This document shows, piece after piece, positions 1,425-1,845 of a stretch of 9,520 bases of DNA. The notes below the pieces were generated by a model. The model did not search any database, was not told where the DNA came from, and saw nothing but the letters and a program-made list of their open reading frames with translations. The translations under genes were made by a program, and so were the position numbers. Numbering within the stretch: position 1 is the first letter of the stretch; every line of letters begins with the position of its first letter. Source of the stretch: a virus (lineage: Duplodnaviria > Heunggongvirae > Uroviricota > Caudoviricetes); IMG/VR virus record IMGVR_UViG_2681813236_000006; one strand, 5' to 3'.

Positions 1425-1765
1425 CGACTTTTACCAGAGAGCAGTTAATAGCTCACGCAGAGGAGACTATTGAAGCACAGAGACTGTGCATACCGGGCAC
1501 AATCGACCATGACATCATCCGCACATATAAGATGGATATTGCTGTTCTGGAAATCGCACTGGTATCGCTGGCAGCAGAGCCAGCCGGTAAATTGCATGAA
1601 TACAAACCAGTGGGATATCAGCGTCTGGTCGATGAGTTAACCATGCTGGTAAAGCAGTTAACCTGGCAACTGAGGAAAGCGAAGCCAGACTGCAAATTAC
1701 CGGATAAGGCGATGAGTTATCTGGAGCGGAACGGACTGATAAGCGTGGAGGATATTTTACGATGA
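1421..1765 (+). CDS. Hypothetical phage protein (114 aa)
   Basis: ORF translationally coupled to the HNH gene by an ATGA overlap at 1421-1424. Family not recognised. Confidence 0.55.
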
Positions 1766-1845
1766 CCTGGCCTGAAGCATTCACAACGGTAGGAATTGCG
1801 ATGGCGGTGGCGCTGGTGGTGTATTCGATTTGCCGCTGGGGATAA
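1762..1845 (+). CDS. 27-aa hydrophobic microprotein ([27 protein letters not shown]), single predicted transmembrane helix
   Basis: Not in the ORF track because it is below the length cut-off. ATG 1762 overlaps the upstream stop (ATGA); GGAGG at 1747-1751 lies 10 nt upstream; TAA at 1843-1845 is followed by a terminator hairpin. Confidence 0.35.

Follow-up and report, generated by a model that had tools for sequence, protein, structure and literature searches.

An unannotated 27-codon gene of lambdoid prophages that probably encodes a single-pass inner-membrane micro-protein

The DNA analyzed here, a stretch of 9,520 nucleotides from the IMG/VR virus record IMGVR_UViG_2681813236_000006 (Caudoviricetes; hereafter the window), carries on its plus strand a 27-codon open reading frame (ORF), the micro-ORF, that overlaps the end of a gene for a 114-aa hypothetical protein. 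A first, sequence-only reading of the window had picked it out as a short gene missed for its length, and had likened its hydrophobic product to small membrane toxins. From a comparison of its copies in phages and bacterial genomes we conclude that this frame is very probably a real protein-coding gene. Its product is likely a 27-residue single-pass micro-protein of the inner membrane, which would insert into the membrane and serve there in a role other than that of a toxin; a function as component of a toxin-antitoxin (TA) system is not supported. What is new is the family, which has no name, while the kind, small membrane proteins of phages, is already known.

Conservation of the reading frame

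Taken alone, the micro-ORF stands at chance level, as 27 ORFs of at least 20 aa overlap positions 1200-2500 of the window; it is the comparative evidence that lifts it above chance. When a 96-nt query around the micro-ORF is compared with 5426 complete E. coli genomes, 1635 of them match, at 3111 places in all, with up to 7 copies per genome and 163 places on plasmids. Where the gene upstream is a different one (DUF551, Ea22-like, EaA-like or 933W L0139), these alignments run from base 8 of the query, which is the ATG, to base 91-92, which is the stop. By tblastn, 94 phage records match all 27 residues without a gap at 59-100% amino acid identity, including 933W, VT1-Sakai, VT2-Sakai, Min27, BP-4795, the P1-like Salmonella phage-plasmid SJ46 and Av-05 of the Vequintavirinae; no lambda record is found among the best 60 of these 94 matches.

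Conservation of the frame in relatives had been proposed as a check, with an interrupted frame as the outcome that would speak against a gene. Among 133 complete copies, gathered with a pattern that leaves everything past the first 20 nt free, the 27 codons are intact in 126, and the check thus does not refute a gene. The other seven are three 24-codon P1-like forms, one 25-codon form with an in-frame 6-nt deletion, two copies with a nonsense codon and one that is truncated. Twelve contexts were inspected base by base, and in these the start is either an ATGA or an ATG directly after the stop of the preceding gene, with GGAGG(T) or GGGAG 6-10 nt 5' of it; ten have 27 codons, the exceptions being the 24-codon form of SJ46 and POCJ13, where W3 is replaced by a stop. 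Clustering of the flanks separates at least 11 kinds upstream of the copies and at least 18 kinds downstream, and GGAGG(T) or GGGAG at 6-10 nt is retained in 11 of 11 upstream clusters. In the window itself, the 27-codon frame, its ATGA overlap and the GGAGG 10 nt upstream are all present as first described (Table 1), and the overlap together with this Shine-Dalgarno (SD) sequence appears built for translational coupling to the upstream gene, in agreement with the sequence-only reading.

Clear pseudogenes are limited to two copies. In Shigella phage POCJ13 (locus L005, 1201-1284) the W3 codon is TAG, and RefSeq annotates instead an opposite-strand ORF of 42 aa, PI30_gp73; in locus L152 the W26 codon is TGA. 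The latter locus holds, at about 2900-3040 and some 40 nt past the micro-ORF, a second unannotated small transmembrane (TM) ORF, MSDDISLAMEGALVVIVVVGVYCLVVLLMERLGN (34 aa), and read-through variants fuse the micro-ORF with MSDDISLAMEGALVVIVVVGVYCLVVLLMERLGN into 74-aa products (P0114, P0125, P0159). In further variants (P0090, P0096 and P0044, from E. coli contigs), in-frame expansions of the hexanucleotide GCGATG introduce (Ala-Met)n into the helix, or 15 residues are duplicated in tandem; the TM segment is thereby extended to 33-42 aa. Read-through and frameshifts also occur among the rare variants.

Beyond the temperate lambdoid phages, Escherichia phage Av-05 (Vequintavirinae, 121 kb) carries a 27-codon gene with 81% amino acid identity (locus L006, 1501-1584), which uses different synonymous codons and a TGA stop, and H123, H125 and H126 are further large-phage matches. 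The presence of the micro-ORF in large non-lambdoid phages shows that it has spread horizontally.

Substitution pattern and predicted membrane topology

In 47 distinct nucleotide versions of the micro-ORF, entropy at codon positions 1, 2 and 3 is 0.43, 0.31 and 0.82, and replacements exchange one hydrophobic residue for another (V, I, L, M, A, F). W3, P4 and A6 are invariant in these versions, but their codons were fixed by the scan pattern; G11, R25 and W26, which lie outside of it, are nearly invariant, and M-x-W-P-[ED]-A is also retained in the tblastn phage matches, which are free of any pattern constraint. Over codons 8-27, the ratio of nonsynonymous to synonymous polymorphism (pN/pS) is 0.41 in frame. 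For the other two sense frames, both interrupted by stops in 47 of 47 versions, the ratios are 0.81 and 1.87. This is the pattern that purifying selection on the micro-protein is expected to leave, with the caveat that the in-phase antisense frame scores similarly.

The peptide has a grand average of hydropathy (GRAVY) of 1.09, a top 19-residue Kyte-Doolittle window of 2.11 and an uncharged stretch over residues 6-24; with a membrane-spanning hydrophobic segment in an ORF of less than 50 aa, it has the features of a small single-pass membrane protein. The hydrophobic character is preserved in the 47 Escherichia versions and in 177 cores of the wider family described below. The single hydrophobic helix of the sequence-only reading is thus borne out as a prediction. 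Since the N-terminal tail is acidic (MxWPEA, net charge -1) and the helix is usually followed by a basic residue (R25), the positive-inside rule predicts an N-out/C-in orientation. In such an arrangement, the interface with the periplasm would be occupied by W-P-[E/D]-A and that with the cytoplasm by R25-W26, and the conserved small residues G11, A13, A15 and A17 could form a face for packing against other helices.

Genomic contexts and neighboring modules

E. coli RM11911 (RefSeq NZ_CP044313) carries a lambdoid prophage that matches the window with 100% identity. There, the gene order is replisome organiser, DUF1627, DUF977, three small genes, HNH endonuclease and the 114-aa hypothetical protein, followed by about 200 unannotated nt, then by ParE and ParD, which are encoded on the other strand, and further by DUF968, RusA and the antiterminator Q; a Pfam scan of the window ORFs is consistent with this order. 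This places the micro-ORF within an early-right region of the nin type, with the replication genes on one side and Q on the other.

Table 1. Positions of the micro-ORF, its signals and adjoining features in the window
Feature	Position	Strand	Remark
27-codon micro-ORF	1762-1845	+	ATG 1762-1764, TAA 1843-1845; 27-aa product; one predicted transmembrane helix, about residues 6-24
Shine-Dalgarno GGAGG	1747-1751	+	10 nt 5' of the ATG, within the last codons of the upstream gene
ATGA start/stop overlap	1762-1765	+	translational coupling signal; the upstream TGA is 1763-1765
Upstream gene, 114-aa hypothetical protein (WP_000206826.1)	1421-1765	+	phrog_660 (function not assigned); one among many alternative upstream partners
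Hairpin	1856-1889	-	outside the micro-gene; read as intrinsic terminator of convergent parDE, possibly bidirectional
ParE	1970-2269	-	
ParD	2275-2532	-	

The surroundings found in the window are not the usual ones. In a census of 143 Escherichia-type copies, the gene upstream encodes a DUF551/Ea22-like protein, the 114-aa protein of the window or L0139. About 45 copies are followed by DUF4222, xis and/or int, 57 by a hok homologue (in 933W the order is L0139, micro-ORF, sokW/mokW/hokW) and only eight by a convergent parDE pair as in the window. In the exo-xis context the next gene begins 2-7 nt past the stop, and a micro-ORF followed by a Xis-like gene and then an integrase is seen repeatedly in E. 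coli and also in Achromobacter-type elements. The usual home of the micro-ORF is the end of the exo-xis or 'ea' string, after Ea22/DUF551-type genes and before either DUF4222-xis-int or an inserted moron.

The sequence-only reading had given weight to the adjoining TA operon. Yet between the window and PhiR49_2, which has the same gene upstream and a different one downstream, homology stops at the stop codon of the micro-ORF (1845/1846), so that parDE is a separate insertion beside it. Nor does the micro-ORF qualify as a third component of ParDE: the orientation is convergent, a terminator lies between, and parDE is near in only the eight copies mentioned. The ParDE neighborhood is a mosaic junction. 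Two unrelated TA modules, type I hokW/sokW (933W locus L001, 2501-2950; the 57 loci above) and type II parDE (window 1846-2532), each lie directly after the micro-ORF stop. Going by these borders, the 3' end of the micro-ORF looks like a preferred junction for moron insertion, and the finding of both modules at one stop codon is most simply explained if the micro-ORF marks a module end where morons insert.

The strong hairpin that had been noted after the ORF is present, with a 10-bp stem (1856-1865/1880-1889) and a 14-nt loop beginning 10 nt past the stop, but it does not belong to the micro-ORF. It folds with -21.9 kcal/mol on the minus strand, where U6 follows, and with -15.8 kcal/mol on the plus strand, where the U tract is interrupted (z about -3.9 on both). 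Being stronger on the minus strand and followed there by U6, it is best taken as a terminator of parDE rather than as a feature of the micro-ORF, and most simply as the end of the convergent parDE operon. In several other contexts, unrelated GC-rich terminator hairpins lie a few nt past the micro-ORF stop. Altogether, the sequence-only reading is supported in part: it was right on the gene and its coupling and wrong on the link to TA and on the hairpin.

Alternative explanations

Could the micro-ORF nevertheless encode a small membrane toxin, either of type I or Hok-like, or an unpartnered 'kil'-type peptide that depolarizes the inner membrane once the early operon is switched on? Size, hydrophobicity and the small-xxx-small face (G11, A13, A15, A17) recall pore-forming type I toxins, lambdoid phages keep host-killing genes in early operons such as those which carry the micro-ORF, and hok or parDE often adjoin its copies. 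Still, we consider a toxin unlikely. The micro-ORF has no separate promoter or 5' leader, and in every context examined its start overlaps the stop of the gene before it. Promoter-like sites are at chance level (3 found, 2.3 expected), nothing points to an antisense RNA, and Rfam gives no match in the window at E<=1. The peptide has no similarity to HokW, to Pfam toxin families or to PADLOC models, and the Hok-like character that had been suggested is not supported. The TA neighbors are separate mosaic modules that start past the micro-ORF stop, most copies have no such neighbor, and as many as seven copies are stably carried in one genome. The fallback of the sequence-only reading, a harmless small membrane protein, comes closer to the evidence than its toxin analogy.

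A peptide without function is a comparably improbable alternative, in which the 84 nt would act as nucleic acid, being a translational-coupling spacer to the next gene or a recombination 'linker' between mosaic modules. The tight packing between two genes that is seen in the exo-xis context, where for example DUF4222 starts 4-7 nt past the stop, would fit this, as would the mosaic junctions exactly at both ends, the great uniformity of the first 20 nt across Escherichia copies and the same apparent constraint in the in-phase antisense frame. However, contigs of 30-73% GC use different codons and still keep amino acid pattern, length and hydrophobicity, a constancy for which an element acting as DNA or RNA would have no need; in many copies the micro-ORF is the final cistron and a terminator follows, so that no gene is left to be coupled; and in-frame indels (the 24- and 25-codon forms and the 6-nt repeat expansions) outnumber frameshifts. 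That translation of a leader peptide controls read-through of the hairpin (attenuation) is very unlikely, even though the stop lies 10 nt before the hairpin in the window and several other contexts have a GC-rich hairpin a few nt past it. The same peptide is followed by unrelated hairpins, or by none where a gene starts after 2-7 nt, over the 18 or more downstream flanks; no alternative antiterminator pairing is conserved; conservation concerns the N-terminus and the TM helix instead of a C-terminal arrest motif; and the hairpin of the window is the stronger terminator for the opposite strand.

Several points weigh against our assignment of a sense-strand gene for a membrane protein. The in-phase antisense frame, which shares its wobble positions with the micro-ORF, is open in 47 of 47 versions with a pN/pS of 0.38, so similar to the 0.41 of the sense frame that the substitution statistics alone do not choose the strand, and we dropped pN/pS as a strand discriminator. 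The search patterns fixed the first seven codons, which makes N-terminal conservation in the wider family described below partly a matter of ascertainment, while the tblastn and profile searches are free of this. A uniform topology is weakened by the C-terminal tail, which among 177 unique cores of that family is neutral in 28 cases and acidic in another 25. No homologue with an assigned function was found in the Pfam, NCBIfam, PHROGs, PADLOC and PDB searches. Finally, the ribosome-profiling catalogue of enterohemorrhagic E. coli (EHEC) Sakai (Hücker 2017) contains no match; it has a minimum length of 93 bp and was made from non-induced cells, so that it cannot hold the micro-ORF. Of these points, the first would also suit a true gene on the antisense strand (window ORF 1871-1515, 118 aa), of which the 27-codon frame would be a mere shadow, and the old record AP004402 indeed annotates a long antisense ORF there. 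We regard this as extremely improbable: the open antisense frames lack a fixed start or end and shift with every flanking context, such a gene would have to cross unrelated neighboring modules, neither SD nor start is conserved, and several members of the wider family have stops in their antisense frames. The sense strand is chosen because start, stop and SD are fixed on that side.

Annotation status and database searches

RefSeq/PGAP annotates the micro-ORF in none of the records examined, NZ_CP044313 included; together with the conservation of its copies, this makes it look like a real gene that was missed for its length, as first suggested. The exact peptide has reached GenBank through other pipelines (AOM45384.1, ASL59396.1 and others) as 'bacteriophage protein', 'hypothetical protein' or 'Prophage protein', at times under the mislabel 'DUF551 domain-containing protein, partial'. 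Its clustering with 'DUF551' proteins of 121 and 185 aa proved to be an artefact of clustering and naming, as those proteins do not contain the peptide. The K-12 element CPS-53 (yfdS, DUF551, then yfdT) was considered as a named homologue and holds no copy of the micro-ORF.

Neither the window peptide nor 20 relatives have a significant match in Pfam, NCBIfam, PHROGs or PADLOC. Below threshold are phrog_4612 (E 0.019), the DUF883_C glycine zipper (0.042), NCBIfam KdpF (E 0.024; 14.7 bits, the cut-off being 26.85) and, for one distant member and below the PetL cut-off, PetL (6.5e-4). A PDB profile search returned only non-significant matches to the Vpu TM segment, and fragments of the peptide searched as strings in the literature gave no match. 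In the portions consulted of two accounts of the exo-xis region, the genes named are orf60a, orf61, orf63, orf73, ea22 and ea8.5, with no such micro-ORF among them (PMC10834534, PMC10789677).

Comparison with known systems

The micro-protein appears to work most like the single-pass proteins of the AcrZ, MgtS and KdpF type, although it is related to none of them. AcrZ, MgtS, MgrB, KdpF and CydX are small bacterial inner-membrane proteins that act through a partner. The micro-protein shares with them a length below 50 aa, one TM helix, the fact of being missed by annotation, sequence conservation at the membrane interfaces and a helix face of small residues; it differs in that it shows no sequence relationship to them, is encoded by phages and is stop-start coupled in early phage operons. 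In its short acidic N-terminal tail, single helix and basic/aromatic C-terminal tail (R-W) it also resembles the coat protein of Pf3, an N-out/C-in single-span peptide that is inserted by YidC. Unlike the Pf3 protein it is not a virion protein, has no sequence similarity to it, and its topology is a predicted one.

With Hok/Gef it has in common that both are small hydrophobic membrane peptides on prophages, but it is half as long as Hok and most of its contexts are without hok. A Pfam scan of the micro-protein at E<=10 gives no match to Hok_Gef (PF01848, about 50 aa), and even at E<=100 BLASTP does not align it with the HokW protein of 933W. Of the elements that accompany Hok/Gef, neither an overlapping frame like mok nor an antisense RNA like sok nor a long, folded leader was found, and with the ATG overlapping the upstream stop there is no room for a Hok-type leader. 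In contrast to type I toxins (TisB, Ibs, Ldr, ShoB, DinQ, Zor), it does not form a transcription unit of its own, as stop and start overlap in 11 of 11 upstream contexts, and it matches no small RNA family. A holin, antiholin or spanin is not indicated either: the micro-ORF lies upstream of Q among early genes, outside the lysis cassette, and PHROG spanin matches are non-significant and limited to one distant member (E 0.18). With the exo-xis genes named above it shares the neighborhood, directly after Ea22/DUF551-type genes, and the early pL-driven logic, whereas their products are soluble proteins and the micro-protein is a predicted membrane peptide.

A wider family of M-x-W-P-[ED]-A micro-ORFs

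Relatives were sought with a 45-aa in-frame translation of the window and with alignments headed by that translation, as well as with DNA patterns. A degenerate pattern for M-x-W-P-[E/D]-A-[F/I] also matches beyond Escherichia, yielding peptides of 22-37 aa built on one plan of motif, about 17-20 hydrophobic residues and a short polar tail. Their sources are Achromobacter, Bilophila, a Bacteriovorax metagenome-assembled genome and many uncultivated viral contigs, at 30-73% GC. Overall, the wider set consists of phage ORFs of 21-40 aa that combine M-[TSNG]-W-P-[ED]-A-[FI] with one TM helix (loci L038, L040, L052, L043, L071, L090, L096, L143, L184-L295, L358-L466), and it has no model in Pfam, PHROGs or NCBIfam.

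Control scans speak to the specificity of the motif. Among the matches listed for the real motif, 42 of 120 are TM-like micro-ORFs; the permuted motif M-x-P-W-A-[E/D]-[F/I], of equal degeneracy, has 55 matches in the whole collection, none of them TM-like (0/55). When the second codon may not begin with A, 24 of 112 matches are TM-like, nearly all of them M-G-W-P-[E/D]-A-F. A scan of genome contigs with the 20-nt pattern returned mostly chance matches, with clear family matches in Escherichia and Shigella; four of the 'chance' matches then proved to be family-like micro-ORFs. The coupling signals follow the family as well. A frame of at least 45 codons ends between -6 and +4 of the ATG in 25/29 and 16/22 unique members, as opposed to 14/70, 12/45 and 4/59 non-family pattern matches, and 25/29 and 18/22 members carry an SD-like 4-mer, versus 13/70, 9/45 and 11/59 non-family matches; the overlaps take the forms ATGA, TAATG and TGATG. 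A profile search of 1.84 billion representatives gives 165 clusters at 50% identity (E<=1e-3), almost all of 24-57 aa and matching at the N-terminus, and those matches that carry a name are only 'hypothetical', 'bacteriophage' or 'prophage' protein or the 'DUF551 ... partial' mislabel. In the 177 unique cores, the N-terminal tail has a charge of -1 in 172, the first polar residue past the helix is R or K in 114, and the C-terminal tail is net positive in 124.

The neighbors within the wider family are diverse, yet all of early type. In the M-G-W-P-[ED]-A-F subgroup, the order Sak4-like single-stranded DNA (ssDNA) annealing protein, protein similar to single-stranded DNA-binding protein (SSB), micro-ORF, GC-rich hairpin/terminator and DNA polymerase beta-clamp recurs (L373, L358, L400, L404, L418, L429, L432, L466 and similar loci), which puts the micro-protein in replication/recombination modules. 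In Achromobacter-type elements a Xis-like helix-turn-helix gene and an integrase follow, the same order as in E. coli, and elsewhere the upstream gene encodes a DNA polymerase-like protein or an exonuclease. From these sequences we lean, by a little, towards the view that the window ORF represents the branch found in Escherichia of a large phage micro-protein family that has no name, with members that usually end in a basic tail, are stop-coupled and are located in early modules of the replication, recombination or exo-xis type in temperate and other phages of many bacterial phyla. With peptides this short, the likeness across the wider set fits common descent or convergence on one design.

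In two further, rare products, P0170 (143 aa) and P0177 (206 aa; L467, 156-776), an Ead/Ea22-like coiled-coil protein is fused in frame to the N-terminus of the micro-protein, with DUF4222 following. These fusions hint at a membrane-anchor relationship between the micro-protein and the upstream gene; P0177 stems from a single 1.8-kb contig, and they hence carry little weight as 'Rosetta stone' evidence.

Proposed role and implications

We propose that the micro-gene belongs to the early, pL- or pR-driven accessory regions of lambdoid and Shiga-toxin (Stx) prophages, and that together with its 114-aa upstream partner it was carried into the nin region in the window. Expression would be early, from pR through the nin region in the window and from pL in exo-xis or b-region contexts. 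Translation would start by termination-reinitiation at the ATGA, aided by the GGAGG inside the upstream gene, and with such a coupled start the peptide should accompany every translation of the upstream gene and so appear upon infection or induction and not in the repressed lysogen. Speculatively, the micro-protein might bind to inner-membrane proteins of host or phage, or oligomerize among them, and thereby adjust membrane physiology or a membrane-associated early step.

Small membrane proteins are systematically missed by annotation, and of the complete E. coli genomes about 30% have the one described here. Its carriers include the Shiga-toxin phages 933W, VT1-Sakai and VT2-Sakai, with the micro-ORF in or beside the exo-xis region, for which work is still under way to trace the effects on host physiology and on the choice between lysis and lysogeny to individual genes. 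Deletion and complementation of exo-xis that ignore the 27-codon gene could therefore credit its effect to a neighbor. If the wider family holds true, it would suggest a common membrane-level step of early phage development, such as the tethering or modulation of a conserved inner-membrane host factor. It also offers a defined target, being short, having an invariant four-residue motif and lending itself easily to start-codon and motif mutants. For annotation pipelines, the micro-ORF makes a concrete case for a profile of an ORF of less than 30 aa.

Other features of the window

Some 700 nt upstream of the micro-ORF and in the same early operon lies another small gene of membrane type, the annotated DUF4014 gene (72 aa; 839-1057, plus strand). 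Past Q the window has no tRNA genes, whereas many Stx phages carry some there. It holds in that part, both on the plus strand, a 237-aa ORF without Pfam match (5286-5999) and an N6/N4 DNA methylase (PF01555, E 1.5e-42; 6521-7606).

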